NCBI GenBank assembly: GCA_942490885.1
Contig: CALNYT010000002.1
Span: 1,184,807 to 1,216,806, forward strand
Direction: 5' to 3'
DNA length: 32,000 nt
Origin: an uncultured Clostridiaceae bacterium
GTDB lineage: Bacteria > Bacillota > Clostridia > Clostridiales > Clostridiaceae
Of this stretch, positions 1 to 27,400 are shown in pieces. Positions within the stretch are counted from its first letter, which is position 1, and each line of letters starts with the position of its first letter. Both the position numbers and the translations under genes were made by a program. The notes below the pieces were generated by a model that saw only the letters and a program-made list of their open reading frames with translations, was not told where the DNA came from and did no database searches.

Positions 1-236
1 ATATAGCTGATTCCACAATTAAGGAAATATGGAATAACAATAAGATGATTAGATTGATAGATGAGGTTAAAAAGTATAATCCTAAAGACTGTGAGGGATG
101 TGAATATAAGGAGTATTGTACTAGATGTCCTGGTATGGTTTGGGAGAATCATGAGTATGAAAATATAAAAGATGAAATAATGTGTTTCAGAGCAAAAGCC
201 GCATATAATGCTGCAAGAGAGGAGCGGGTAATATGA
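1..236 (+). CDS. radical SAM/SPASM-domain peptide maturase, C-terminal end (5' part outside window)
   Basis: Frame is open from the window edge (codons phased from nt 3) to TGA 234-236. The tail ...DCEGCEYKEYCTRCPG... is a CxxCx5CxxC cluster typical of SPASM auxiliary Fe-S domains. The stop overlaps the ATG of the next gene (ATGA at 233-236). Confidence 0.7.
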   Translation, partial: IADSTIKEIWNNNKMIRLIDEVKKYNPKDCEGCEYKEYCTRCPGMVWENHEYENIKDEIMCFRAKAAYNAAREERVI

Positions 237-1477
237 AGTATCAGATTTGTGAAGAGATTACTACAAGATTAAAAGGAAATCAACTTCTTGTAATAAAGGG
301 TAAAAATGGTAGACAATATAAATTAAAAAAGGAAGTCATGAATATATGGAAAGGAATTATGGAAGGAAATAGTGAAGAGGAGATTTTGGAAGAGACAGGT
401 ATATCAGAAGAACTTCTTAGAAATTATTTAGAAGAATTTGAAAAACAAAATTTGATCAAAGAAGGAGAAGCAAAATTACAAATTGAAAAGCAAATTTTAT
501 GGGAACCCTATGATAGAAAATATACAATACACAAAGCAGGATTAGTTGTAACTGATGAGTGTAATTTAAGGTGTAGACACTGTTACAATGAATTTGAAAG
601 GGAAAATAGAAAAGTACTATCACTTGAACAGTGGAAAGATGCTGTAATTCAACTGAAAAATTTAGGGTGTTACAACTTAATGATAACAGGTGGTGAAGCT
701 TTTTTATATAAGAATATTTTTGAGCTATTAGATTTCATTGATAAAAGTGGTTTTACTTTTTCAATAAATAGCAATGGTACATTAATAGATGAGAATATTG
801 TTTTAAAACTTAAGGAATATTCTAATCTTGAGTGTATATGTATATCATTGTATGGATTGAGTAAAGAGACATATAGAGATTTTTCTAGAAGAGAAATTGA
901 GCCTGAAAACATAGTAAATAATATTAAACTATTGAATAAAAATGGGATAGAGACTATTGTCCAATTTAATTATAATAATAAAACCTTTGAAGATGCTTTA
1001 GATCTTAGGAAGTTTGAGAAGAAGCACAATTTAAATCTACTAAAGCAAATTTCATATATATATTCAAATTTGACATCCACAAAATCAGAAGATTTTAATT
1101 TGAATGATGAGCAATTACAAAGGTTATACGATGAAAAAATAATTGAGATAAATGATAAATGCAATCCTTGTACAAGCTGCGGAAGGGAAAGATGTTCAAT
1201 AAATTCAAGAGGAGATGTATCTATCTGTGAGTTAATGGGTGGATATCCTGTTGGAAATATTAAAGAAAATAGCTTAATGGACATATGGAGTTCTTTTGAG
1301 TGTGATACGTTTCTTGAAAACACAGAACCTAATAAAGAATGTAATAGTTGTGATGTAAAAGAGTTCTGCATACGGTGTGATGGAGTGGCATTAATTGAAT
1401 CTGGTGACAGAAAGGGTATAGCAAAGAGGCTATGTGAGTATACTAGAAAATTAAAAAAGGTATCCCAATGTAATTGA
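233..1477 (+). CDS. radical SAM/SPASM peptide-modifying enzyme with N-terminal PqqD-like RiPP recognition element
   Basis: 414-aa ORF. CNLRCRHC (CxxxCxxC radical SAM cluster) lies near residue 110. C-terminal Cys clusters CNPCTSCGRERC and CNSCDVKEFCIRCDG are SPASM-type. The N-terminal ~90 aa (KEVMNIWKGIMEGNSEEEILEETGISEELLRNYLEEFEKQNLI) resembles a PqqD/RRE winged helix. Translationally coupled to the upstream rSAM gene. Confidence 0.85.
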   Translation: MKYQICEEITTRLKGNQLLVIKGKNGRQYKLKKEVMNIWKGIMEGNSEEEILEETGISEELLRNYLEEFEKQNLIKEGEAKLQIEKQILWEPYDRKYTIHKAGLVVTDECNLRCRHCYNEFERENRKVLSLEQWKDAVIQLKNLGCYNLMITGGEAFLYKNIFELLDFIDKSGFTFSINSNGTLIDENIVLKLKEYSNLECICISLYGLSKETYRDFSRREIEPENIVNNIKLLNKNGIETIVQFNYNNKTFEDALDLRKFEKKHNLNLLKQISYIYSNLTSTKSEDFNLNDEQLQRLYDEKIIEINDKCNPCTSCGRERCSINSRGDVSICELMGGYPVGNIKENSLMDIWSSFECDTFLENTEPNKECNSCDVKEFCIRCDGVALIESGDRKGIAKRLCEYTRKLKKVSQCN

Positions 1478-11355: not shown

Positions 11356-12288
11356 ATGAATATAAATATTTGTAAAAATATCGCAAAACTGCGAAAAGAA
11401 AATAAAATGACTCAGGCACAAGTTGCAGAATATTTAGGGGTATCACCTCAAGCTGTTTCTAAATGGGAACAAGAAGCAGCGATACCTGATGTTTACCTCA
11501 TCCCTAAAATTGCTTTTTTCTTCAATGTATCAATAGATACTTTATTTGGCACTTCAAATTTAGATGCTACAGATTTGTTGGTCAGCAAGTATTCTACTGT
11601 AAGAAATGATAAGAATTATAAAGACGCTAAAGAAGCAGTAGAAACACTTTTAGATATGAATGGTGAAGATATGAAAGTTTTGGGATTATTGTGTCATCTA
11701 GAATATCAACGAGCTTTAGAATTTTTATTAAAAAGTAAGGCAGCTTGTGAAAAGTTACTAAATGTTTCAGATGGGAAAGATATAAATTGGACAAAACGTT
11801 CAAACATACAGTTGATGCGTCTTGATGCTATGCTAGGTAACTTTAGTTTTATTGAAGATTACATGAAAAAATTTGAAACAACAAAATCAGTAGATGACAT
11901 TAATTATCTATTAGTGGCTCTTGGACAAAGACATCAATATGAAGAGATACTTAGATGGGGTAATGATTATATTGAAACATTCACCATAGAAGAACAAGTT
12001 ATGATTTACCCAAATTTAATGGAAGCTGCTTTGGTACTTGAAGATATAGAGTATACAAAGGTATGTTTTAATAAAATTGTAGAAAATAATCAAGATAAAC
12101 ATCAGATTTTCAATGCATGGTGGTTATTATGGAAACTTTATAAGAAGGTAGGAAATACTGAACAAACAGAAACTTGTAGAATAGAGTTGCTTAGACAGTT
12201 GCCATCACAAGGACTAAATGATTTTTCTTTTGAAAATATCAAAAATCATATAAATGGTATTGGAGAAGAAATTGTAACTATTCTTTAA
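11356..12288 (+). CDS. XRE-family HTH transcriptional regulator with helical/TPR-like C-terminal domain
   Basis: 310-aa ORF with an AAGGAG RBS. MTQAQVAEYLGVSPQAVSKWEQEAAIPDVYLIPKIAFFFNVSIDTLFG is a canonical HTH_3 domain. The remaining ~240 aa are helical-repeat-like. Confidence 0.8.
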   Translation: MNINICKNIAKLRKENKMTQAQVAEYLGVSPQAVSKWEQEAAIPDVYLIPKIAFFFNVSIDTLFGTSNLDATDLLVSKYSTVRNDKNYKDAKEAVETLLDMNGEDMKVLGLLCHLEYQRALEFLLKSKAACEKLLNVSDGKDINWTKRSNIQLMRLDAMLGNFSFIEDYMKKFETTKSVDDINYLLVALGQRHQYEEILRWGNDYIETFTIEEQVMIYPNLMEAALVLEDIEYTKVCFNKIVENNQDKHQIFNAWWLLWKLYKKVGNTEQTETCRIELLRQLPSQGLNDFSFENIKNHINGIGEEIVTIL

Positions 12289-13153: not shown

Positions 13154-15145
13154 TTAATTAAATTGACTCTCATGTTTCGTGAAGAAATCAATACGTGGTT
13201 CCAAGAACTTTATTTCATGGTCAGCAGGAGTTTCCATAAAGGCACTCATAGGCTCAAAAATATGCTCCCAATCCCAAATGTTTTCATTAACTCTTAAATA
13301 TTCTCTAACCATTTCACAACTATTTGGTGCAATAGGATGAATTAATGTCAGTGCAGTTCTAATCCCTTGGAATGAATCTACTAAGATTTGTGTTCTAAGT
13401 TCATCGTTTTCATCTGTTTCTGCTTTTTTCATTTGATTTGCCCAATGTTTGTTTAACTTACGTATAAAACTATCAAGAACATATATTATACGATGGAAAT
13501 CGTGGTTAAACATATGACGTTCATACTCAAGAACTGAATCTTTACATAAAGTAAGAATTTCTTCGCTCACTTCACCTTGTGGTATCTTTGTGTCATAGAA
13601 TTTTTGTGCTGTGTAGAAACATGATCTTAAAAGACGATTAAATACGTTAGTAAGTAGGTTTCCATCTTTTAATACTGTATCAGGACCTTGACGGTCTTCC
13701 TCAGGCATATAAACTTGAGGCATAAAACTTACACTCTTCTTAGCTAAGCCAAGACTTAAAAAGTGCATACGTAATTGCTCTGGAGTGTAATGATCCAATA
13801 ATTCTTTTGCCATTGGTGGTTTGATGTCACTACTACTACTTGCTTTTTTATCAAGGAAAAGTACATGATTATTTGGAATTAAATGAGGTAAATTTGTTGT
13901 TTCCCAGTTAATTTCATCTTTACTACCTTTACCTTGTAGAGCTAAGAACATTGCCATTTCAGCAATTCCATAGAAATAAATATTATCCTCGCCTATGAAT
14001 TGATAAACTTTGGAATCTGCTCCTTGCCACCACTCAGTCCATTCTTCAGGGTTTTTACCAATTGATTCTAAATAAGTTCTAGTGAAAGAGATTGGTGCCC
14101 AAAGAGATTCTGGCCATACCCAGAAAGTTAGATCATCAAGACCTTCTTTTTCAGGTACTTTAATACCCCAATCGATATTTCCTGTTAATCTAAATGGAAC
14201 AAGTGTCTTACCAGTTCTAAAATTAAGGCCCATCTCTTCTAACACTTCTCTTCCTTTGTCACGGTCAGCTAAGTTTTCAAAGATAAAAGTAAGGGATGGT
14301 TTCTTTGGTTCGTCAATAAGAGTATGCTTTGGCATTTTATTTACAAGACCTTCAACATCTCCATCTAATTGCTTACGTGTTACATAGATTATTGGTTCTT
14401 TAAGGAACTCTTCAATTGTATTTAAAAGATATTTTCTTGCATTTGAATTTCTTTTTAAATCATCTACTTGGCTTTGAAGAGAATCTTTGTATTCATCCAA
14501 TTTAAAATACCAGTTAGTTACTTCTACTAGCTCTGGTTTCTTACCTGATAATGTACTGATAGGATTAATTAACTCACTTGGCATATACATATGTCCCAGG
14601 GAACATTCGTCTGCATAGCCTTTATCGGATTGACACCCTTCAATAGGACACTTACCAACAACTTGACGTCCATTTAACAATACTTTAAATTCAGGATCAA
14701 AAAATTGTGGTGTAGATAGCTTTTCAAGGAATCCACCTTCATATAACTCATTGAAAACTTCTTCTGAAACATCTTTGTGTATCTCGCTAGCACGGTCTAA
14801 TCCTGAGGCAGCATAAAGATTAAGACTCATTTCATATTCATCTAAAACAGCCTTCTGTTTGTTATGATTTTCTCTAACATAGTCTTCTATACTTCCAGTG
14901 AAGTTTTCTTCATCAACAAGCTTGCGATAGTTAGCTGAGATAGGTGATCCATAACAATCTGTACCAGATACAAAAATAACGTTGTCTTTACCGATACGGT
15001 CTCTTAAAAATCTTGCATATGTGTCAGCATGAACAAACACACCACCAACATGGCCGAAGTGAAGTTCTTTATTACCATAAGGCATACCAGCTGTAATAAC
15101 AGCTTTTTTAGGGAATACAGGTCGTTTTATATTTTTCTCTCTCAT
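13154..15145 (-). CDS. metG: methionine--tRNA ligase
   Basis: 663-aa ORF with an AAGGAGTG RBS. It has a class I HIGH motif (HFGHVGG), a connective-peptide Cys knuckle (CPIEGCQSDKGYADEC) and overall MetRS-like order. The KMSKS-equivalent loop reads KKASSS. The upstream T-box leader carries an AUG specifier candidate, independently supporting Met. Confidence 0.9.
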   Translation of the reverse strand: MREKNIKRPVFPKKAVITAGMPYGNKELHFGHVGGVFVHADTYARFLRDRIGKDNVIFVSGTDCYGSPISANYRKLVDEENFTGSIEDYVRENHNKQKAVLDEYEMSLNLYAASGLDRASEIHKDVSEEVFNELYEGGFLEKLSTPQFFDPEFKVLLNGRQVVGKCPIEGCQSDKGYADECSLGHMYMPSELINPISTLSGKKPELVEVTNWYFKLDEYKDSLQSQVDDLKRNSNARKYLLNTIEEFLKEPIIYVTRKQLDGDVEGLVNKMPKHTLIDEPKKPSLTFIFENLADRDKGREVLEEMGLNFRTGKTLVPFRLTGNIDWGIKVPEKEGLDDLTFWVWPESLWAPISFTRTYLESIGKNPEEWTEWWQGADSKVYQFIGEDNIYFYGIAEMAMFLALQGKGSKDEINWETTNLPHLIPNNHVLFLDKKASSSSDIKPPMAKELLDHYTPEQLRMHFLSLGLAKKSVSFMPQVYMPEEDRQGPDTVLKDGNLLTNVFNRLLRSCFYTAQKFYDTKIPQGEVSEEILTLCKDSVLEYERHMFNHDFHRIIYVLDSFIRKLNKHWANQMKKAETDENDELRTQILVDSFQGIRTALTLIHPIAPNSCEMVREYLRVNENIWDWEHIFEPMSAFMETPADHEIKFLEPRIDFFTKHESQFN

Positions 15146-15508
15146 TAATAATCACTCCTTAAATAATTATATTTTCATAGATAAAGCCACATTTTTAAAT
15201 AAGGTACTCTGAAATCTTAAAAATTGGCTAAAAAAGTATATAAAAAAACACCTCCTATAGCTATCTATAGGGGCGATTGTTTCGCGGTACCACCCTATTT
15301 TATTAATATGTCACCATATTAATCTCATGAAGTACAAAATTATACTTTAGTTCTGTAACGTGAACAAACGTCATAGCATCACCTATTTTTAAATAAGATC
15401 CGTATGAAGCTCCAAGCCTTGGTTCATCAAATTTTCCGCTGTTCCCTCTCAGCACTAGGAACTCTCTGTATGCTTCTAATATGATTACTCTTCTCTTCAT
15501 TGCCTTTA
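15146..15508 (-). promoter_or_regulatory. T-box riboswitch leader (Met specifier) controlling metG
   Basis: On the minus strand: the canonical T-box AGGGTGGTACCGCG (complement of 15283-15296), immediately followed by a terminator hairpin CCUAUAG-AUAG-CUAUAGG and a U7 run (complement of ~15242-15276). The upstream stem-I-like region contains AGAGAG, and the candidate specifier loop GAAAAUUUGAUGAACC has AUG followed by A (complement of 15425-15427). The 65-aa track ORF at 15303-15500 lies entirely inside this leader. Confidence 0.85.
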
Positions 15509-15514
15509 TGTTTG

Positions 15515-15543: not shown

Positions 15544-16105
15544 GGGGGCAGAAGTATTTTTGAAATTAAATATTGATTTTTTCTCATATCAAGGCTCCAC
15601 TTTAGTTATGTAGTATTTAACATAATAGGCACAAATCTCTCATTTTTTATAAGTGGTAGGAATGAGTAATCTTAAATTAATACTTTGATGAAAAATTATA
15701 AATGTGAAATAAATTGTAATTTAATGAATTTAAATAAGAACGAAAATATTTAATAAATTCTTAAAAAAAGTAAGCAAGAAAATATTATTTATAAAATATA
15801 ATAAAACGTTTTAAAAATATAGTTTTTAAATACGTATTAATGTTGAAAAATTTAATGGTTAATAATACATAATAATACAAGAATGGAACTAATAGTGTGA
15901 TATCGTTAAACTAGAAAATTAAGAGGGACAAGTTGTTATGAAAAACTATATTTTTACTGACATTGGATGTGAAAAAATATCAGTTATTTAAATTTTAAAA
16001 GTTGGGTAGTCATTTACATAGCATACTTCTAAAACTTGGGTTGAATTTAGTCTGTTAAAAAATTAATTTATACTGTACTCATCTTGAAATGATAATTTAA
16101 TTTGA

Positions 16106-16690
16106 CTGTATAAGTATAGAATAATCCACCGTAAAAAACATAAGTTTAGGAATAATGTAAGGGAATATTTGCAAAATAATTGGTTTAGACCAGCATAAAG
16201 GGTTTTAATAAAGCGGATAGATAGTGAGAATTATGCTTGGCAGGAATTTGTAGAATATAAACTATGTAGTTCTTTGGATGAAGCAAGACGGTATTATCAT
16301 AGGTGTGGAGTATATTTATCAATATTTTATTTTTTAAATACTTTTGATATTCACGATGAAAATATAATTTGTAATGATCAATATCCGGCACTTATTGATT
16401 TAGAAACACTGTGTAACGGTAGAATTAACAATATATATACTGTTACTGAATGCCGTGATTTATTAAACGGGGTTTTAAATACTTCCTTTATACCTTATGT
16501 GAATCCTAATGGGGTATTTGATTTAAATATAAGTGGAATACTTTTGAACCAGATATCTCAAAAAAATGGGAAAGTATGTTTTGGTTGAAGATGATAAATT
16601 AGATTTAGCATATGAAAAAGTTAATTTAGCTTTTTCGGTGTCTGAAAATGTTTTGAAAATATCAATCAATGAACAGTTGGTGGATCTGAT
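16106..16690 (+). pseudogene. class II lanthipeptide synthetase (LanM) pseudogene, dehydratase-domain fragment only
   Basis: One frame reads LYKYRIIHRKKHKFRNNVREYLQNNWFRPA*RVLIKRIDSENYAWQEFVEYKLCSSLDEARRYYHRCGVYLSIFYFLNTFDIHDENIICNDQYPALIDLETLCNG. This matches the LanM motifs YKPR, WLN, YGWxEF, YYxRxG and D(L/I)HxENII...P.LIDLE. There is an in-frame TAA at 16196-16198 and a frameshift at the A7 run 16560-16566. After the shift it continues as VEDDKLDLAYEKVNLAFSVSENVLKISINEQLVDL. The fragment ends by ~16690, so about 800 aa, including the LanC-like cyclase, are missing. Confidence 0.7.
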
Positions 16691-16861
16691 GATGGTGGAG
16701 ATGCTCAAGAGTCAGCAGTTGATTCAACAATAGGTACTTCAATTGTTGTAACTGAGGTTGTATCAAAGGCTGTAACTGCTGTTACAGCACTAACAGTAGT
16801 AGCAAGTATTTTATATAGTTGCACAAAAAATACTGTTGTATGTAAAAGAAAGAAAAAATAA
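16673..16861 (+). pseudogene. possible lanthipeptide precursor fragment (Ser/Thr/Cys-rich core-like peptide without start codon or leader)
   Basis: A 62-codon open frame follows TGA 16670-16672: TVGGSDDGGDAQESAVDSTIGTSIVVTEVVSKAVTAVTALTVVASILYSCTKNTVVCKRKKK*. It contains GG/GDAQ cleavage-like motifs, is very Ser/Thr-rich, and has two Cys near a basic C-terminus. It has no in-frame ATG/GTG/TTG and abuts the truncated lanM frame, consistent with a deletion that joined lanM to a downstream lanA. Confidence 0.3.
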
Positions 16862-17046
16862 GTAGTAAAATTAAAAATTTAAAATAATTTAAGTAAGAGA
16901 CCTAACATACATATTAGTATGAAACCACCATAATTATATAAATTTCTATTTTAAATGTTTTATCAGCTTGGTATATGGAGTTAAGTCTCTTACTATAAAT
17001 ACTATTATATATATTTTTTTAAAAAATATGAAAGAGAGAAATCAAT

Positions 17047-17202
17047 ATGAATAGATTTAAATATCAAATAGAACCAGCTATACTAGTAATATTTTCGTGT
17101 ATTGGTGTGATTTTCGGAATAGCATTACATAATATTTGGATAATTATAGTTTGGCTAATATTAGGTATAGCTATTGGTGTAAATAAAAAAAGTAATGAAT
17201 AA
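17047..17202 (+). CDS. small two-helix membrane peptide (51 aa), possibly a leftover immunity-type gene
   Basis: Not in the supplied track (<60 aa). AAAGAGAGAAA lies upstream of ATG 17047. Sequence: MNRFKYQIEPAILVIFSCIGVIFGIALHNIWIIIVWLILGIAIGVNKKSNE. The function is an inference from context only. Confidence 0.35.
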   Translation: MNRFKYQIEPAILVIFSCIGVIFGIALHNIWIIIVWLILGIAIGVNKKSNE

Positions 17203-17286
17203 TGAAGGAATAGAATGGTTGCAGCTAAAGGTAACTCTATTTAGCTCTACTGATTAAGACATCACAGACATTGCAGAAATTATATT

Positions 17287-17848
17287 ATGATTAGACCACA
17301 AAAAGATTAGTTTTTCACTGTGGTCTAATTCATTATTATCTTCATTCTTTTATGAAAAAGCTTTAAAGTAAAATACTGGAATAAATTTCGAAATATAAAA
17401 GTATCCTGTTTGTTTAATGTTTTGCCTCCTTTATCTATGGCTTTTAGTAGCTTCTTCACAGTATTAGCCGTGATTTTAAACCCAAACCATAATTTTGAGC
17501 GCAAATATCCCTTTACAAGCGTATTATCAACTCCCATTACAGTAACTACATCACTAGATAGCGACTCAATTTACTCTTTTAATAAATCTATTCCCTTTTT
17601 CAATTCAGATTCTAATAATCTACACCTAAAATTATACAGTGTATTAATTGAAATAGGTTGTTTATCGTAGCTAGTTGTTCCTACAGCATATTGATATATA
17701 ATATCATAGTGTAGTGAACCCACAAGTTCCTCATCTGTCTGTTGAAATAATTCCTTTAATATTAATAATGAGATTATTACATTAAGTATTATTATATCAA
17801 TTAACACGGTCATTTGGTAAGAATTTCATGCTTTTGTGGTCTAATCAT
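17287..17848 (-). mobile_element. internally deleted IS element remnant (IS1182/IS5-like transposase fragments) with terminal inverted repeats
   Basis: TIRs are ATGATTAGACCACAAAAAG (17287-17305) and CTTTTGTGGTCTAATCAT (17831-17848). Minus-strand ORF 17571-17813 (LKELFQQTDEELVGSLHYDIIYQYAVG...TLYNFRCRL) resembles the DUF772-type N-terminus of IS1182/IS5 transposases. ORF 17325-17537 (KGYLRSKLWFGFKITANTVKKLLKAI) resembles their C-terminal tail. The ~400-aa DDE core is missing. The left end also folds back on itself (17290-17300 pairs with 17319-17329). Confidence 0.65.
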
Positions 17849-17871
17849 CACATATAATCTTACTTATAAGG

Positions 17872-19761: not shown

Positions 19762-20976
19762 ATGGAAAAATCATTATTAAGAAGTAAAAAAATTATAGAA
19801 TTAGAAGAAAAGATTCAATACGGAAATAATGAAGCATTACAAGAATTTTGGGATATGTTAGAAGAACAAGGTACTCCTATAATAGAAAAAATAGAAGGAG
19901 ACCAGGAAAATGACTTAGTAACTTTTATTTATAAAGCCGATGAAGAGCCTGAAAATGTAGTGTTTTTATCACCAGTGGTGGGAATGGCTAATTTAGAAGA
20001 TAACAAGATGGAAAGACTTCTAGATTCAAATTTATGGTACAGAACATATAAGGTGAGAAATGATGTGCGTTTTGGTTATTATTTTTCTCCAAATGATCCT
20101 TTTGATGATGATTGGGAGAAAAGATTTGATAGAGTAGCCCATGATCAATTTAATAATAATATAACAGTTTTTAAAGGTACCAAAGATGATGATGTGTTAA
20201 GATCGAATGTGATAATGTCAAATGCAGAAGAAGACTTTTGGATCAAGGAAAGAAACGATGTACCTAAAGGAAAGCTAGAAGAATTCAAATTTAAAAGTGA
20301 GAATTTTAAAGAAGACCGTAGAGTTAGAATTTACACACCTCATGAATATAGTAAAGTGAATAAACCATATGGATTTTTAGTATTATCTGATGGTGATGAA
20401 TATATTAACTTGCTTTCAGCAGTACATGTACTGGACAACTTAATCGCTGATAAAAAAATACCACCAATAGTTACAATATTTATTGATTCAACTGAGACTA
20501 GGCGTGAAGAATTAAGGTGTAGTGATACCTTTGGAGATATAATAGTTAAAGAGTTAATTCCTTGGGTTAGAGATAATTATAATATTTCAAACAAATCAGA
20601 GGAAGCTATAATTGGAGGACTAAGCTTAGGGGGATTAACAGCAACTTATTTAGGATTAAAACATTCAGAAGTTTTTGGAAATGTACTTTCCCAATCTGGT
20701 TCACATTGGTATATACCAGAGGGAGTAGAAAGTGACGAAAGTAATTGTTGGATGAGCACTCAATTTCAAGAAATAGATAAATTACCACTTAAGTTTTACT
20801 TAAACGTAGGGGTTCTTGAAACTAAAGAAAGCATGATTGATACAAATATAAATCTAAGAGATGTATTAATATCTAAAGGATACACTGTTGACTTTGAAGA
20901 GTTTAAAAGTGGACATGATTATTTAAGTTGGGGAGAGACTTTGGCTAATGGGTTGATTTCATTGATTGGTTATTAA
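19762..20976 (+). CDS. fes: enterochelin (catecholate siderophore) esterase, Fes family
   Basis: 404-aa ORF with a GGGAGG RBS. Matches to E. coli Fes as recalled: N-terminal EFWDMLEEQGTPIIEKIEGDQENDLVTFIYK; DRRVRIYTP; GGLSLGGLTATYLGL (GxSxG nucleophile); VLSQSGSHWY (Fes VLSQSGSYWW); and C-terminal SGHDYLSWGETLANGLISL (Fes GGHDALCWRGGLMQGLIDL). Confidence 0.85.
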   Translation: MEKSLLRSKKIIELEEKIQYGNNEALQEFWDMLEEQGTPIIEKIEGDQENDLVTFIYKADEEPENVVFLSPVVGMANLEDNKMERLLDSNLWYRTYKVRNDVRFGYYFSPNDPFDDDWEKRFDRVAHDQFNNNITVFKGTKDDDVLRSNVIMSNAEEDFWIKERNDVPKGKLEEFKFKSENFKEDRRVRIYTPHEYSKVNKPYGFLVLSDGDEYINLLSAVHVLDNLIADKKIPPIVTIFIDSTETRREELRCSDTFGDIIVKELIPWVRDNYNISNKSEEAIIGGLSLGGLTATYLGLKHSEVFGNVLSQSGSHWYIPEGVESDESNCWMSTQFQEIDKLPLKFYLNVGVLETKESMIDTNINLRDVLISKGYTVDFEEFKSGHDYLSWGETLANGLISLIGY

Positions 20977-21185: not shown

Positions 21186-21881
21186 ATGGTAGAGGTTTTT
21201 GCTGTAAATGTAAATAGAGATATGAAAGAATTTGAGTTTGAGAAATTATTGAGACTAGTTTCAGAGGAAAAAAAAGAGAGAATACAGAGATTTCGTAGAT
21301 ATAAGGATTCACAGATGTGTCTTGTTGCTGATGTTCTCATGAGAAAAATAATTTGTGACAAGTATAATATTAATAATAGGGAAATCACATTTATAAAAGG
21401 TATTAATGGTAAACCAGAACTAAATAAACCACATAGTAATATTAAGTTTAATTATTCTCACTCAGGAGATTGGATCGTATGTGCAGTGAGTGAAGTTCCT
21501 GTCGGAGTTGATGTGGAGAGAATTAAGGAAATAGATATGGCAATTGCTGAGAGATTCTTTTCCAAGAGTGAATATGATGATCTTATGAAATTAGAAGGTG
21601 ACAAGCAATTAAACTACTTTTACGATCTTTGGACTCTTAAAGAGAGTTATATTAAGTGGGATGGTAGAGGACTATCGATTTCACTGCAGGATTTTTCATT
21701 TAAGATAAAAAATAATAATTTTGTAAAATTCCAATCTGAAAAACACAATAATCTTTGCTTTTTTAGGCAGTATTTAATAGATAGTGAATATAAACTATCA
21801 GTGTGTTCATGTGAAGATGATTATAGTAATGAGGTAGATATTTTTGAGTTTGATAAATTAATAGAGAGTTTATGTAAATAG
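21186..21881 (+). CDS. Sfp-type 4'-phosphopantetheinyl transferase
   Basis: 231-aa ORF with a GGGGGAG RBS. Motifs: GKPEL, FNYSHSGDWIVCAVSEVPVGVDVERI and WTLKESYIKWDGRGLS (W/FxxKESxxK). Confidence 0.85.
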   Translation: MVEVFAVNVNRDMKEFEFEKLLRLVSEEKKERIQRFRRYKDSQMCLVADVLMRKIICDKYNINNREITFIKGINGKPELNKPHSNIKFNYSHSGDWIVCAVSEVPVGVDVERIKEIDMAIAERFFSKSEYDDLMKLEGDKQLNYFYDLWTLKESYIKWDGRGLSISLQDFSFKIKNNNFVKFQSEKHNNLCFFRQYLIDSEYKLSVCSCEDDYSNEVDIFEFDKLIESLCK

Positions 21882-21904
21882 GTATGATAGTGTCAGGACA
21901 AGCG

Positions 21905-21954
21905 CAAAGAAGAGGAGAGTTCAATATAATTTTAATGAACTCTCCTCTTCTTTG
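21905..21954 (+). terminator. intrinsic terminator after the PPTase gene
   Basis: CAAAGAAGAGGAGAGTTCA (21905-21923) pairs perfectly with TGAACTCTCCTCTTCTTTG (21936-21954). The 3' arm is T-rich. Confidence 0.7.
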
Positions 21955-22153
21955 TAGGTACATAGATTTAAAAATGAATAATATAAAGTTTTAAGTCGAA
22001 TTTAAATATGAAAAAAAATGCAACAAAGAAAATAAAAAGAAAAAGTCGAAAAAGTTTACAAAAGAATTATAAAGTAATAAAATTATACTTACATATTGTG
22101 TTTTTTGATGGAATGCTATGTATTTTTGTAAAAAAAAGATATAGAATAGGGGT

Positions 22154-23482
22154 GTGCCAAAGTTGAAGAGTTATATTGAAAACGAAGAGAAAATTAAATC
22201 ACCAATTAAATATTATAGAAATTTGCTTGATATTACACAGAAAGAGTTGGCAGGTGAAAAGTATACAAGAGGGTATATACAAAGTTTGGAATCAGGTAAG
22301 AGGGTTCCAGCATATAAATGTGCTGTGTACTTGATAGAAAAAATAAAAGAAATTGCAAATGAAAAGAAAATTAAAATTGATATAACAATAGATGAGATTA
22401 TGAAAAATGAAAAAGAAAGATTGCACGACTTTTTTTTAAAAAGAATTGTGCATATGAATGTAGAGCAAAAAAGTGAAAGTGATATAAAAAACTATAAAGA
22501 TTTAGTAAGTGTTATTAAGGAGTATAATTTTACTGATCTTCAAAAAAAGGTAAACACATTGATTGCAGATGAATTGTTAAAATGCAAAAAATATATGGAG
22601 GCAATAGAGTACTACAATACTGTAATAGAAGGATTAGAATGTAAGGAATTTACATTAAATGGAATATCTATTTTGAGAAGAATTGGTACTTGTTTTTATA
22701 TGATTCAAGATTATGATAAGAGCATTCAAAATTATAGTAAAGCAGAAGAATTATATATATCCAATCAGTTAGATGATAGTGATGAATATATTAAAATTTT
22801 AATAAATATTAGTCTTGCATTAAAAAAGAAGAAAGATATTGTTAAAAGTATTCAATATATAAAAAAGGCACTATGCCTTGAAAACGTAAATGAAAAAATG
22901 GTTTATAATCTAAAATTACAGCTAGGAAATAATTATCAAGATATCAAAAAATATGAAAAAGCTTTAGGAATTTATGAAGAACTGTATAAGCAGTATTCTG
23001 ATGATTACCTTTTAAATTATAATATAGCAATAACATATGACTTTCTTGAAAAAAGAGATCAAACAGAAAAGTATCTTGAGAAATGCTTATCAAGTAAATT
23101 TGAAAACAATGAAGAAAAATCTATATATTCTCTCATGTTACTTGGCAAGATAAAGCTTGAAAAAAAAGAAAATGCTCATGCAGAAAAGTGTTTTGATTAT
23201 GCACTAGATATTGCAAGCAAATTTAAAGATGGTGAGATGATTATTTATACTATAAGCAATATTTATGAGTTATTACAAAAAAATGGATTAAGTTACAAGT
23301 TTGTTAAATATTTTGAGTCTATAATTTTAAACGAAGATATTATTTTAAAAAATAAAAATAATATTTCTGAAATTTTGATTGTTTTATTAAAGTGTTCTGT
23401 TGAAATAGAACTTTCTAAAGAAGATAAGGATAAAATTAAAAATATTATAGAGATAATTGAAAGGGGAAAAAGAATATGTTAA
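22154..23482 (+). CDS. RNPP-type (PlcR/NprR/Rap-like) HTH + TPR transcriptional regulator
   Basis: 442-aa ORF starting at GTG 22154; TTG 22163 is an alternative start better spaced from AGGGGTG. An N-terminal XRE-type HTH (ITQKELAGEKYTRGYIQSLESGKRVP) is followed by ~350 aa of TPR-like repeats (YMEAIEYYNTVIEG, YDKSIQNYSKAEELY, YEKALGIYEELYKQ, AEKCFDYALDIA). The stop overlaps the start of a small secreted-peptide ORF. Confidence 0.75.
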   Translation: MPKLKSYIENEEKIKSPIKYYRNLLDITQKELAGEKYTRGYIQSLESGKRVPAYKCAVYLIEKIKEIANEKKIKIDITIDEIMKNEKERLHDFFLKRIVHMNVEQKSESDIKNYKDLVSVIKEYNFTDLQKKVNTLIADELLKCKKYMEAIEYYNTVIEGLECKEFTLNGISILRRIGTCFYMIQDYDKSIQNYSKAEELYISNQLDDSDEYIKILINISLALKKKKDIVKSIQYIKKALCLENVNEKMVYNLKLQLGNNYQDIKKYEKALGIYEELYKQYSDDYLLNYNIAITYDFLEKRDQTEKYLEKCLSSKFENNEEKSIYSLMLLGKIKLEKKENAHAEKCFDYALDIASKFKDGEMIIYTISNIYELLQKNGLSYKFVKYFESIILNEDIILKNKNNISEILIVLLKCSVEIELSKEDKDKIKNIIEIIERGKRIC

Positions 23483-23649
23483 AAAAATTATTAGTAGGTA
23501 TGTTATCAGTAATGATTATTGGTGTGGGATTTAATGGGATAAATACTACCATTAGTAGGGAGAAACAACAACCTATAGAAATAGCAGAATTAGGGTCAGG
23601 AGATATTAGTCCTGTGTTATTTGTGATAGATAATAATCAAGAAGGGTAA
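23476..23649 (+). CDS. candidate secreted signalling pro-peptide (57 aa) cognate to the RNPP regulator
   Basis: Not in the supplied track (<60 aa). ATG 23476 overlaps the regulator stop (ATGTTAA). Sequence: MLKKLLVGMLSVMIIGVGFNGINTTISREKQQPIEIAELGSGDISPVLFVIDNNQEG. It has a basic N-terminus plus a hydrophobic export segment, then a hydrophilic tail. Position and size match PapR/NprX/Phr/Qsp-type genes. Confidence 0.55.
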   Translation: MLKKLLVGMLSVMIIGVGFNGINTTISREKQQPIEIAELGSGDISPVLFVIDNNQEG

Positions 23650-23702
23650 TAAAATAAGTTTTATAGAAAATTAATTAGCTTAGTATATTAAAGGAGAATA
23701 AA

Positions 23703-24410
23703 ATGATTCTATTTTGCTTACCTTATGCAGGTGGTTCTGAGGCTATTTATTATAAATGGAGACAATTATTGGGAGAATCCATAAAGTTGTATCCAATAGA
23801 GTTAAAAGGTAGAGGAAAAAGATATAACCAGAACTTTTACACAGATATTAATGAAGCAGTTAATGATATCTACAACTTTATAAAAGAAGACATTGAAGAA
23901 AATGAATATGCAATTTATGGACATAGTATGGGAAGCCTTTTAGCATTTGAACTTTACTATAAAATAAGTAGCATGGGAAAAAGAAAGCCAAAGCATATTT
24001 TCTTCTCTGGATACAGTGCGCCATGTAGTATAAAAGAGCGAGAAATAACCTATACTTTACCAGATTATGATTTTATGAATAAAATTATAGAACTTGGTGG
24101 AACACCACAAGAATTAATGGATAATAAAGAGCTACTTGATTTATTCATTCCAATATTGAAAAATGACATTAAGATATTGGAGAACTATACATATAAGGAT
24201 AGAGAAGAGAAAATTAGTTGTGATATATCAATATTAAATGGTAGTAAAGATTCCATTAAAATAAATGAAATTACTGAATGGAGAAAGCATACTAGTGAAA
24301 AATGTAATATGTATACATTGAATGGAAATCATTTCTTTATAAATGATAATGTAGAAAATATAACAAATATTATAAAACATACTCTATTGGAGGTGGAAAA
24401 TGTATCATAA
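23703..24410 (+). CDS. type II (editing) thioesterase
   Basis: 235-aa ORF with an AAGGAG RBS. LFCLPYAGGSEAIYYKW, the GHSMGS nucleophile elbow and a C-terminal GNHFF (His) are typical of NRPS/PKS TEII. The stop overlaps the NRPS start. Confidence 0.85.
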   Translation: MILFCLPYAGGSEAIYYKWRQLLGESIKLYPIELKGRGKRYNQNFYTDINEAVNDIYNFIKEDIEENEYAIYGHSMGSLLAFELYYKISSMGKRKPKHIFFSGYSAPCSIKEREITYTLPDYDFMNKIIELGGTPQELMDNKELLDLFIPILKNDIKILENYTYKDREEKISCDISILNGSKDSIKINEITEWRKHTSEKCNMYTLNGNHFFINDNVENITNIIKHTLLEVENVS

Positions 24411-27400
24411 TTTATCCCATCCGCAGAAAAGAATTTGGTACATAGAAAAAATTAATTCAAGTTCAAATCTTCATAATCTTGGTGGATGTTTAAAGATTAA
24501 TGGAAAAATCGACTTAAAAATACTTGAACAAGCAATCAAGAAAATAGTTAAAAATAATGATGGGTTACGATTAAGGGTTATAGAAAAAGATGGGCAACCG
24601 TATCAATGCGTAACAGATTACGAAAGAGAAGAAATTGAAATGTTTGATTTTAGTTTAGTTGAAAATTCCTATGAAGAATTTATTTCTTGGTCAGAAGGCG
24701 TTTTTAAGAAGAGATTCAACATAGAAAATAGTCCACTATACTACTTTGCAATATATAAGATAAGCGAAAAAGAGTGTGGTGTGTTACTGAATATTCATCA
24801 TATTATTGCAGATGGATGGTCAATAAACCTTATAGAAAAACAGATATGTGATATTTATAATAATCTTATAAATGATAAACAGTTTGAATATTCATGTGAA
24901 TACTCATATGTTGATTACATGGAAAGAGAAAGAAAGTATTTAAATTCTGATAGATTTAAAAAGAATAAAGAATTTTGGAATGAAAAATTTACTAAACTGC
25001 CAGAGACTTTCCTATATAAAGGGGGGAAGGAATTAGCGGGAGAACGAAAGACTTTTAATGTTAATAAGGAATTATCAATTAAGATTAATAAATTTTTAAA
25101 AGAACAAGGATGGTCATTAAATACATTTTTTATAGCTACAATGCTTATTTATTTGAATAAGATGACCCAGGAAGAAGATATAGTTATTGGAACACCAGTA
25201 CTTAATAGATCAGGAAAAAAAGAGAAAAGCACAATAGGGATGTACACAAGTACAATGCCATTGAGAATTAGTGTAAATCAGAATATATCAGTAGGTGAAT
25301 TCATAAATGAAGTTAACTCAGAACTGAAATCATGCTTCTACAATCAAAAGTATCCATATGATATTTTAGTTAGTGATTTAGAGCTTACTAAAAAAGGATA
25401 TGATGGGCTGTTCCAAATGTGTGTAAATTATTACAATACTAAGAATACCAATGAAATTAAAGGGGTACCAGTGCAGGTTGAAGAGTATTACTGTGGTAAT
25501 CAAAGCTATTCGCTTCAGTTAATCGTCAAAGAATGGGAAAATGATGATAGGATTACACTTAGTTTTGATTATAAAACAAGTGAGTATTCTAGGGAATATA
25601 TTTCAAACATGTATAAGTATTTTATGATTATTTCACTTCAAATATTGAAAAACAAAGATGAAAACATAAAAAACTTGAACTTACTTGATAATGAAGAAAT
25701 TAAAGGACGAGTATATGAATTTAACTCAACAGAGGTAGATTATCCAAAAGATAAGACTATATGTGAATTATTTGAACAGCAGGTTATGGAAACGCCAAAT
25801 AAAATTGCTATTAAATTTTTGGAAAATGATTTTACATACATGGAGTTGAATGAAAGAGTAAATCAAATGGCTTCATATTTAATAAAAAGTGGTGTTACTA
25901 AAGGAAGCTTAGTTGGGATAATGGCCAATCATTCTGTTGAAATGGTTGTAGGGATTTTAGCAGTAATGAAAGCAAGGGGGGCATACATTCCTATAGATCC
26001 CACGTATCCTACTGAGAGAATAACGTATATGCTTGAAGATTCAGGGGCAGTATTGTTACTTACTAATATAAATGTAAGTGAAGATATTAGATTTGCAGGA
26101 AAAATTCTAGAGCTAAATAATGATGAAATCCAAATAGAATATTCGAAAAATTATGAAATTTTACATGAGATAGGGAGTGCAGATGATTTAGCGTATATTA
26201 TTTATACCTCAGGATCAACAGGAAAACCTAAGGGCGTTATGATTAAACAAAGAGGATTAGTAAATTATATATGGTGGGCTAAAAAAATGTATTTAAAAGG
26301 AGATGATGAAGTATTTGCTTTATATTCATCTATATCTTTTGATCTTACAGTTACATCAATATTTGCTCCACTAATCTCAGGAAATACAATTGCAGTTTAT
26401 TATGATGATGGAAGTGAATTTATATTATATAAGATTTTAAATGATAACGTGGCAACTGTTGTTAAATTGACCCCTTCACATTTGACATTACTTAAAGATA
26501 TGGACAATAGTAAATCTTCTATTAGACGGTTTATTGTTGGAGGAGAGAATCTTAAATCCACCTTAGCTAAAGATATTTATAATAGCTTTAATTCCAATAT
26601 AGATATATATAATGAATATGGTCCTACAGAGACCGTGGTGGGATGTATGATACATAAATATAATCCATTAGAAGATACTAAACCATCTGTACCGATAGGA
26701 ATACCTGCAGATAATGTTCAGATATATTTACTGGATAAAAACTTGAAAGTTATTCCAAAAGGTGCAATTGGAGATATGTATGTTTCAGGGGATGGTGTTG
26801 CTAGAGGGTATCTGAATAGAGAAGATTTAACAAAAGAAAGATTTATAAAAAATCCTTTTATTGAAGGTAAGAGGATGTACAAGACTGGAGATAAGGGAAG
26901 ATATTTAGATAATGGAATTATTGAATATGTAGGTAGAAGTGATAGTCAGGTTAAGATACGAGGCCATCGTATCGAACTTGGAGAAATCGAAGAATATCTA
27001 TTAGAAAATCAATTTATCAATGAAGCACTTGTGATAGATAAAGATAACAAAAATGGAGATAAGGTGTTATATGCTTACTTGATAGGTGATAAGAAGTTAG
27101 ACAATTCAGAGTTAAAAAAATGGCTATTATCATTTATTCCTAAATATATGATTCCAGTTGATTATATATATTTAGAGGAATTTCCACTAACACCAAATGG
27201 AAAGGTGGATATTAAGCAACTCCCAGAAGTTAAGGAAATAGAAAAAGAATTTATTAATTCAAGAAATGATATAGAAGATAGTTTAGTTGAAGTATTAAAA
27301 GAAATACTAGTTATCGATGAGATAAGTATGAATGATAATTTTTATCAGCTTGGAGGAGATTCAATAAAGGCTATTCAGATTGCATCAAAGTTGAAAAATA

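Follow-up and report, generated by a model that had tools for sequence, protein, structure and literature searches.

The closest described relatives of the system discussed here are the Qsr-Qsp pairs of Clostridium acetobutylicum (QssA-H; Kotte et al. 2020, PMC7376267), in which a receptor of about 430-440 amino acids (aa), composed of an Xre-type helix-turn-helix (HTH) domain and tetratricopeptide repeats (TPRs), precedes a co-oriented open reading frame (ORF) that overlaps or abuts the receptor gene and whose product of 39-59 aa begins with basic and hydrophobic residues. The same layout is found in a stretch of 32,000 nucleotides (nt) from an uncultured Clostridiaceae bacterium (assembly GCA_942490885.1, contig CALNYT010000002.1, positions 1,184,807 to 1,216,806 of the forward strand), which was analysed as a whole and is referred to as the window. 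Here, a regulator gene and a small ORF of 57 codons lie between the gene of an Sfp-type 4'-phosphopantetheinyl transferase (PPTase) and those of a type II thioesterase (TEII), a nonribosomal peptide synthetase (NRPS) and a peptidase fused to an ATP-binding cassette (ABC) exporter. Our preferred reading, to which we give a probability of about 0.72, is that the two genes form a self-contained quorum-sensing cassette of the RRNPP type (Qsr/NprR-like), inserted between PPTase and the TEII-NRPS-peptidase/ABC genes and gating a prodrug-type (N-acyl-D-Asn) cluster. That the NRPS genes are under cell-density control, as had been suggested from the DNA letters without database searches (hereafter the sequence-only reading), we infer from the gene architecture.

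In NprR-NprX of the Bacillus cereus group, likewise, the receptor combines an HTH with about nine TPRs, its gene is directly followed by that of the pro-peptide, and the mature peptide is an internal part of the latter. The likeness of the window regulator to NprR is, however, detectable by profile only, and the targets of NprR, which has a second role in Spo0F binding, are nprA and the necrotrophism regulon. An experimental precedent for the proposed function is NrpR-NIP of Streptococcus salivarius, a cytosolic receptor of the RRNPP(A) family and its peptide, which were shown to switch on the adjacent sar polyketide (PK)/NRPS cluster (salivabactin) at high density (PMC12186490). The NrpR receptor is Rgg/RopB-like, its peptide is leaderless and the receptor gene is divergent from the cluster, whereas the window combines a Qsr/NprR-like receptor with a signal-bearing pro-peptide, both in the direction of the cluster and apparently in one transcription unit with it. 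Bernard et al. 2023 (RRNPP_detector, PMC10075063) list 196 candidate RRNPP-associated clusters, and among their entries (PMC10075063, Table S5) are 'subfam_11_QsrB' pairs from C. beijerinckii, C. felsineum and C. saccharoperbutylacetonicum that fall inside NRPS regions called by antiSMASH. Qsr-type pairs in clostridial NRPS regions have therefore already been catalogued in silico, and the pair of the window is a new, divergent member; the catalogued QsrB pairs are known by antiSMASH region, with no distinction here between inside and near the cluster, whereas the window cassette is internal to the operon, with PPTase before it and TEII after it.

In the regulator (22163-23482, forward strand; 439 aa from TTG), an Xre-type HTH at the N-terminus (about nt 22190-22372) precedes about nine TPR-like helix pairs (about nt 22409-23473). 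Its repeats match TPR_12 (2.2e-13), TPR_1 (4e-12) and TPR_2 (4.6e-11) of Pfam, and an AlphaFold 2 (AF2) model (pLDDT 84.5, pTM 0.73) consists of helices throughout, about nine pairs of them beyond aa 86, in agreement with a helical-repeat receptor of the TPR type. An N-terminal HTH is a feature of all RRNPP(A) receptors except Rap. In the window regulator it is indicated by an HTH_3 match, by the HTH matches of its family (HTH_3 in 22 and HTH_19 in 18 of 32 members) and by alignment with the HTH of QsrG, and the segment at aa 13-73 is almost invariant among the three close regulators described below. The mechanical ORF extends from GTG at 22154 to 23482 (442 aa), which the sequence-only reading had taken as the gene. 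However, the start codons of both close homologues align with TTG 22163, and GTG 22154 falls within the AGGGGTG ribosome-binding site at 22149-22155, so that translation probably starts at 22163; this yields the 439-aa product already present in public collections (P0001).

Searched as a single sequence with phmmer against PDB, the regulator retrieved only designed or generic TPR proteins. A family profile built from 32 members was more informative: NprR (5dbk/4gpk) is its best natural bacterial match in PDB (E 5e-17, aligned as a single collinear block of about 290 columns), followed by the Rap proteins RapH (1e-16), RapF (1e-15) and RapJ (3e-15). An hhalign comparison of the profile with CA_P0040/QsrG of C. 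acetobutylicum is end to end (424 columns, 99.85% probability, E 1.2e-30), and BLASTP finds 24% identity between QsrG and the window regulator over aa 14-277 (E 1e-11). CA_P0040 was taken from pSOL1, was identified as QsrG by the listing order in Kotte et al. and is the one of the eight Qsr regulators that was compared; an overlapping QspG ORF, ending in ...LSVSPMTPW, is present downstream of it. The receptor is accordingly homologous to established members of RRNPP(A) (QsrG, NprR, RapH/F/J), and its TPR domain groups with peptide receptors, a point on which the sequence-only reading had made its own interpretation depend.

The relationship to Qsr is a distant one. Identity to QsrG, the sole Qsr protein compared, is 24%, against 31-55% among Qsr proteins. 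All Qsp peptides end in Trp, whereas the pro-peptides of the window subfamily are without Trp and carry a Pro and an acidic G-D/A-D...P core: of the Qsp signature of Leu, Pro (-5) and terminal Trp, the three pro-peptides compared here have the Pro conserved, Leu in two of three and Trp in none. Because of this low identity and the lack of a terminal Trp, the regulator is, on homology, a distant member of the Qsr/NprR-like branch of RRNPP which stands outside the narrow Qsr subfamily of C. acetobutylicum. The classic arrangement of PlcR-PapR, NprR-NprX, Rap-Phr or Qsr-Qsp, to which the pair had been assigned from sequence alone, thus applies in the sense of a distant Qsr/NprR relative and not in that of a Qsr-Qsp pair proper.

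The second component of the cassette is the pro-peptide gene (23476-23649, forward strand), which encodes the 57-aa product MLKKLLVGMLSVMIIGVGFNGINTTISREKQQPIEIAELGSGDISPVLFVIDNNQEG. As had been noticed beforehand, it overlaps the regulator gene in the motif ATGTTAA (23476-23482), where its ATG (23476-23478) is followed by the regulator stop TAA (23480-23482), and its ribosome-binding site AAAGGGGA (23459-23466) is seen within the last regulator codons. In the product, basic residues at the N-terminus precede a hydrophobic segment and a hydrophilic tail, the signal-like part comprising aa 1 to about 27 (nt 23476-23556). The gene had been expected to escape routine annotation, which is incorrect: the exact 57-aa product is already called in NCBI- and Logan-derived gene sets, and the homologue from Oceanirhabdus is annotated as the hypothetical protein WP_271226238.1.

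Regulators with more than 50% identity are rare, as only two were found among 5.8 billion clustered proteins: P0002 (69% identical), encoded on a 2.4-kb Logan contig (L002), and P0003 (55% identical) from Oceanirhabdus sp. W0125-5 (CP115913; L001). In both loci a small ORF is present in frame at the same place, beginning 1-2 nt past the regulator stop, and is preceded by the ribosome-binding site GAAAGGGGAA; the products are MLKKMLGVMLSVMVIGGVINYNNIGVNMEKKQCIQVAELGSADAEPM on the Logan contig and MFKKIIKGTIVVLLGIMIVNTLSGNITTRSEEKKQIHFAGIEPGDCEPESYSIVKNRVS in Oceanirhabdus. The three pro-peptides have in common M-[LF]-K-K, a hydrophobic stretch, EKxQ and a core A-[EG]-[LI]-x-x-[GA]-D-x-x-P. A scan of genome contigs with the three-sequence alignment recovered Oceanirhabdus alone, and tblastn against plasmids matched only cyanobacterial TPR proteins. 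Unlike the Qsr-Qsp systems, the window subfamily has these three known members only, each tied to one prodrug-type cluster.

The pairing extends well beyond this subfamily. A full HMMER search with the three regulators against 1.84 billion representatives yielded about 30 full-length HTH+TPR relatives (405-436 aa, 18-30% identity), and all five that were inspected (22-30% identity) have a small ORF directly downstream, complete in four cases and cut by the contig end in one. The four complete ORFs have the same basic/hydrophobic/hydrophilic layout, and their hydrophilic parts contain motifs of a D-x(2,3)-P-x-P-S type (...EDIVHPKPS..., ...EDVIDPKPS..., ...QDIANPGPS...). We defined a signal-like product by at least two K/R among its first 8 residues, a hydrophobic window of 12 aa and a hydrophilic tail. 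All seven complete ORFs downstream of family regulators (window, L001, L002, L004, L005, L007 and L008; the one in L009 is cut by the contig end) correspond to this definition, against a background of about 0.5-2%: 5 of 210 small ORFs in six loci do so, and probably four of these five are the pro-peptide ORFs themselves. The export-like signal and hydrophilic tail that had been recognised in the single sequence are therefore a family trait and, as judged from this conservation across relatives, the receptor/pro-peptide pair is real and conserved. In one distant relative (L008, Logan SRR22334933, 1741-2148), downstream of the regulator P0011, the signal-like N-terminus of a pro-peptide-like ORF of 135 aa leads into a related motif, DNRLDPPPMSLP, repeated five times in tandem, and the ORF looks like a multi-copy signalling-peptide precursor.

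A comparison of clusters bears on how the cassette came to its present position. In C. tagluense, the closest relative of the cluster (72% identity), the order is PPTase, TEII, a 1494-aa NRPS, peptidase/ABC and a large NRPS, with neither regulator nor small ORF. Since PPTase and TEII adjoin there with a gap of 15 nt, positions 21882-23702 of the window are, by comparison of gene order, an insertion between these two genes. The same arrangement, PPTase-cassette-TEII, is found on the Logan contig of the 69% homologue. In Oceanirhabdus the cassette instead follows a C-A-T-TE NRPS (condensation, adenylation, thiolation and thioesterase domains), a peptidase/ABC gene whose product is 52% identical to that of the window, and a 1493-aa NRPS. 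The C. felsineum homologue of the peptidase/ABC gene belongs to a different cluster without the cassette. That the cassette accompanies one type of cluster although the genes are ordered in two different ways favours a functional connection between the two.

The genes that flank the insertion in the window are well defined and all lie on the forward strand. The PPTase gene (21186-21881; PF01648 1.8e-19, PF22624 2.9e-18) is the first biosynthetic gene of the cluster and lies upstream of the cassette. The TEII gene (23703-24410; PF00975 3.9e-38) starts 53 nt after the end of the small ORF, close to the 50 nt previously given. It is followed by the gene of an NRPS starter module (24400-28881; 1493 aa) with condensation (C), adenylation (A), thiolation (T) and epimerization (E) domains, which are recognised by NCBIfam matches (TIGR01720 at aa 1343-1490) and by the motifs HHIIADGWS, FDLTVTSIF, VVKLTPS, NEYGPTETVVG, PNGKVD and HHLIVDGVSW, the last being that of the E domain. 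The specificity residues of the A domain, taken from the NRPS motifs found, are DLTKIGEVGK, presumably the published Stachelhaus code for Asn, and on this assumption the starter is C-A(Asn)-T-E. The next gene (29029-32000, running past the window end) encodes a fusion of a beta-lactamase-fold (S12) peptidase (PF00144 at aa 47-363, 3.7e-68) with ABC_membrane and ABC_tran domains (PF00664, PF00005). Homologues of this fusion are numerous (850 at E<1e-30), are mostly named 'cyclic peptide export ABC transporter', and include many from Clostridium as well as proteins of B. cereus and B. thuringiensis.

Clusters which cap their product with N-acyl-D-Asn and release it by a periplasmic or extracellular peptidase are known for xenocoumacin (XcnG), colibactin (ClbN/ClbP) and zwittermicin (ZmaM). 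The window resembles them in its C-A(Asn)-T-E starter and in its dedicated beta-lactamase-fold peptidase, here fused to an ABC exporter, so that the domain content fits the N-acyl-D-Asn prodrug logic that had been proposed before; the window contains the starter end, and the rest of the assembly line is beyond it. To our knowledge, RRNPP control has not been reported before for clusters of the prodrug type, although no literature search was aimed at this question. Two further genes may bear on the cluster. Directly upstream of the PPTase gene, positions 19762-20976 (forward strand) encode an enterochelin-esterase-like protein with Esterase and Enterochelin_N domains. Outside the window, on the same 5.28-Mb contig, a second and shorter peptidase/ABC paralogue (P0224, 749 aa; 88% identical across 40% of the query) points either to a gene fragment or to another such cluster.

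The non-coding DNA of the insertion is informative with regard to transcription. Downstream of the PPTase gene, an intrinsic-terminator-like hairpin (21904-21955, forward strand) is formed by a 25-nt inverted repeat with 92% complementarity (-33.8 kcal/mol, z = -7.8), and a hairpin with U7 is found at the equivalent place on the Logan contig; it would insulate the PPTase gene from the cassette. No terminator-like structure was detected in 23585-23710 (z = -1.1 and 0.0), nor between pro-peptide gene and TEII on the Logan contig. Between the PPTase terminator and TEII the only sizeable intergenic DNA is a region of 150 nt (22010-22162, forward strand), which aligns without gaps among the three loci at 75-81% identity, compared with 47-63% just upstream of it and with 68.7% for the coding sequence of window and Oceanirhabdus (dS about 1.2). 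Its leader segment is 91% identical over 46 nt between these two, a conserved block of the form ATGCAACA-N17-AAGTCGAAAA stands upstream, and TATGTATTT is a further conserved block. A sigma-70-like promoter candidate, TTTACA-17-TAAAAT (22055-22083, forward strand; 10 of 12 matches), has both hexamers within blocks that are invariant across the three loci. A separate promoter in the 53-nt gap before TEII is unlikely, because a promoter-like match is possible there only if its -10 element overlaps the ribosome-binding site. Given that the HTH segment of the regulator is nearly invariant, 22010-22162 probably holds, together with the promoter and a 5' leader of about 70 nt, the operator or operators of the receptor itself, and is a candidate operator for Qsr-like receptors; no defined Qsr binding site is known to us.

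Other interpretations of the conserved region were considered and rejected. A lysine-rich ORF of 52 aa (22008-22166, forward strand) is called by gene finders, but it has stops in both homologues, with substitutions spread evenly over the codon positions, and is regarded as non-coding. A known or structured RNA is not indicated either: the 150 nt have no Rfam match, and RNAalifold yields -4.7 kcal/mol without covariation. Dyad symmetries seen by eye are not retained across the three loci, and no operator is claimed from them. A metagenome scan with AAGTCGAAAANGTTTAC returned at least 120 matches, none of which, among the matches listed, has extended similarity (at most 45% identity).

The three close pro-peptides also permit a proposal on the position of the mature signal. 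The conserved core AELGSGDISP (aa 37-46; 23584-23613, forward strand) aligns with AELGSADAEP on the Logan contig and AGIEPGDCEP in Oceanirhabdus. On the Logan contig, TAA replaces the TTA of the window (Leu48), so that this 47-aa variant ends one residue past the Pro, while the DNA past the TAA remains homologous up to the stop of the window ORF; the tail of the Oceanirhabdus pro-peptide is unrelated to that of the window. Residues 29-46 are thus conserved, and the last 10-11 are dispensable or variable, as follows from the stop codon in one homologue and the unrelated tail in the other. With a dispensable tail, the mature signal is probably internal, around ELGSGDISP, rather than C-terminal, and AELGSGDISP is the best candidate for the signal or its centre, the natural truncation setting a boundary for it. 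QspB offers a parallel, as its active heptapeptide AEPTWGW is internal and the precursor carries a dispensable C-terminal extension of 7 aa (PMC7376267). Synthetic C-terminal 5-9-mers, which the sequence-only reading had put forward as test peptides, would accordingly probably miss the signal.

Taken together, these features are compatible with the following mechanism. The promoter around 22055-22083 would transcribe the gene of the cytoplasmic receptor and the translationally coupled pro-peptide gene and, as no terminator follows the latter, transcription would read through into TEII, NRPS and the peptidase/ABC gene. The N-terminal signal would direct export of the 57-aa product, which extracellular processing would reduce to a short peptide from the region of the internal core ELGSGDISP. 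At high density this peptide would be re-imported, bind to the TPR domain and alter the action of the receptor at the conserved upstream DNA, either by activation, as in NprR and PlcR, or by relief of repression, as in QsrB. In either mode, cassette and cluster would be switched on together in a positive-feedback autoinduction.

Several observations weigh against such a gating cassette. The structural placement of the receptor is unspecific: a Foldseek search of the AF2 model places CTPR, OGT and LGN/Pins first and Rap at rank 49, and Foldseek, being undiscriminating for TPR solenoids, was not used as a basis for placement; an LGN-type TPR (3ro3) is at the same time a listed signature of QsrB-subfamily receptors (RRNPP_detector, PMC10075063, Table S5). 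The HTH_3 match of the window protein alone (aa 18-52) is marginal, with E 1.4e-4 and 22.3 bits against a cut-off of 23. The promoter scan as a whole is at chance level (29 sites against 25 expected), which leaves conservation as the support of the candidate. Within the pro-peptide, a clear AXA cleavage site is not visible by eye, possible -3/-1 sites standing after G18 or S27, and its dN/dS of 0.51-0.62 (45-55 codons, compared with 0.26-0.34 for the regulator) suggests weak purifying selection, which is consistent with a fast-evolving signal peptide and is no proof by itself. Furthermore, no second copy of the conserved element was found in the window or the homologous loci, nor before any biosynthetic gene, and the cassette of Oceanirhabdus is a separate unit at the 3' end of the cluster with its own strong hairpin terminator, so that read-through cannot couple the two there.

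The last two points also speak for the main competing explanation, which we consider unlikely: a genuine quorum-sensing pair that does not have the NRPS cluster as its target, but controls itself or distant genes (such as those of sporulation or metabolism), while the cluster is expressed from an unrecognised internal promoter or by unregulated read-through. The characterised Qsr systems indeed act on solvent formation and sporulation and not on neighbouring genes, and distant members of the receptor family occur in non-biosynthetic settings, next to ABC transporters, FabH or arginase. However, all three members of the window subfamily adjoin the same cluster type, in two gene orders, and in the window and on the Logan contig a terminator upstream of the cassette and none downstream make the cassette promoter the sole evident promoter for TEII and NRPS.

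Another explanation concerns the nature of the small ORF. The HTH+TPR protein might sense something else, such as the NRPS product or a released N-acyl-D-Asn fragment, and the small ORF might encode a membrane-anchored or secreted mini-protein with a different role, for instance in immunity or anchoring. The hydrophobic segment could act as a membrane anchor, no clear cleavage site is visible in the product, and purifying selection on the ORF is weak. Nevertheless, the pairing of receptor and small ORF is kept down to 22% receptor identity, the conserved motif is located in the hydrophilic and not in the hydrophobic part, the five-fold motif repeat in one relative is typical of a processed signal precursor, and the receptor is homologous to the peptide-binding Qsr and NprR, which renders this alternative very improbable. 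That the 57 codons are an unexpressed chance frame is scarcely credible: the ORF is short and its dN/dS is statistically inseparable from neutrality over 47 codons, but a stop-free run of this length at 29% G+C has an estimated probability of about 1%, and all homologues keep the ORF open in frame behind a conserved ribosome-binding site; the signal-like layout recurs in 7 of 7 complete cases, compared with at most 2% in the background.

If, as the quorum-sensing cassette reading holds, the cassette gates the operon, it has a practical side. NRPS clusters of clostridia are for the most part silent under laboratory conditions and without a known product; production of a prodrug-type metabolite could then be elicited by a simple switch, namely a short synthetic peptide (about 7-12 residues) spanning ELGSGDISP, or a strain that over-expresses or lacks the regulator. 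The features that set the locus apart are the visible insertion, the apparent single transcription unit with a prodrug cluster, the conserved non-coding element and the natural truncation of the pro-peptide. The cluster without the cassette in C. tagluense and that with it in the window genome constitute a before/after pair for the recruitment of quorum sensing to a biosynthetic operon. Tentatively, and with rather less than an even chance of being correct, one may go further and regard promoter/operator, receptor and pro-peptide gene as a portable plug-in module of about 1.8 kb, which moved as a whole and came to lie within or next to NRPS clusters of a single prodrug-type family: to the head in one lineage, where it would have split an older PPTase-TEII operon and become the sole promoter, and as a stand-alone unit at the tail in another genus. 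If true, a biosynthetic operon has been naturally rewired to cell density by a complete autoinduction cassette, and the 150-nt element is a new operator for a Qsr-like receptor.

Some other features of the window deserve mention. A second protein with an Xre-type HTH (HTH_3 3e-13), of 310 aa, is encoded at 11356-12288 (forward strand); its C-terminal portion of about 240 aa has no Pfam match at E<=1e-5 and no PDB match at E<=1. Two small ORFs, of 62 aa and 99 aa (membrane-like), come after its gene, and at a threshold of 90% or more the protein shares a cluster with one of 137 aa from Oceanirhabdus seepicola. The methionyl-tRNA synthetase gene (13154-15145, reverse strand) is preceded by an ordinary T-box leader (15266-15509, reverse strand; 107.6 bits). 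In the ORF-poor region from about 15600 to 17870, the match of a 104-aa ORF (16274-16588, forward strand) is confined to the middle of DUF4135, the domain with which class II lanthipeptide synthetases begin; the ORF is probably the remnant of a decayed LanM gene. Near the beginning of the window, a radical S-adenosylmethionine (SAM)/SPASM-domain enzyme (233-1477, forward strand), possibly a peptide-modifying maturase, is accompanied by a 163-aa protein of unknown family, a 2-phosphosulpholactate phosphatase-like protein and a transporter of the major facilitator superfamily (MFS).

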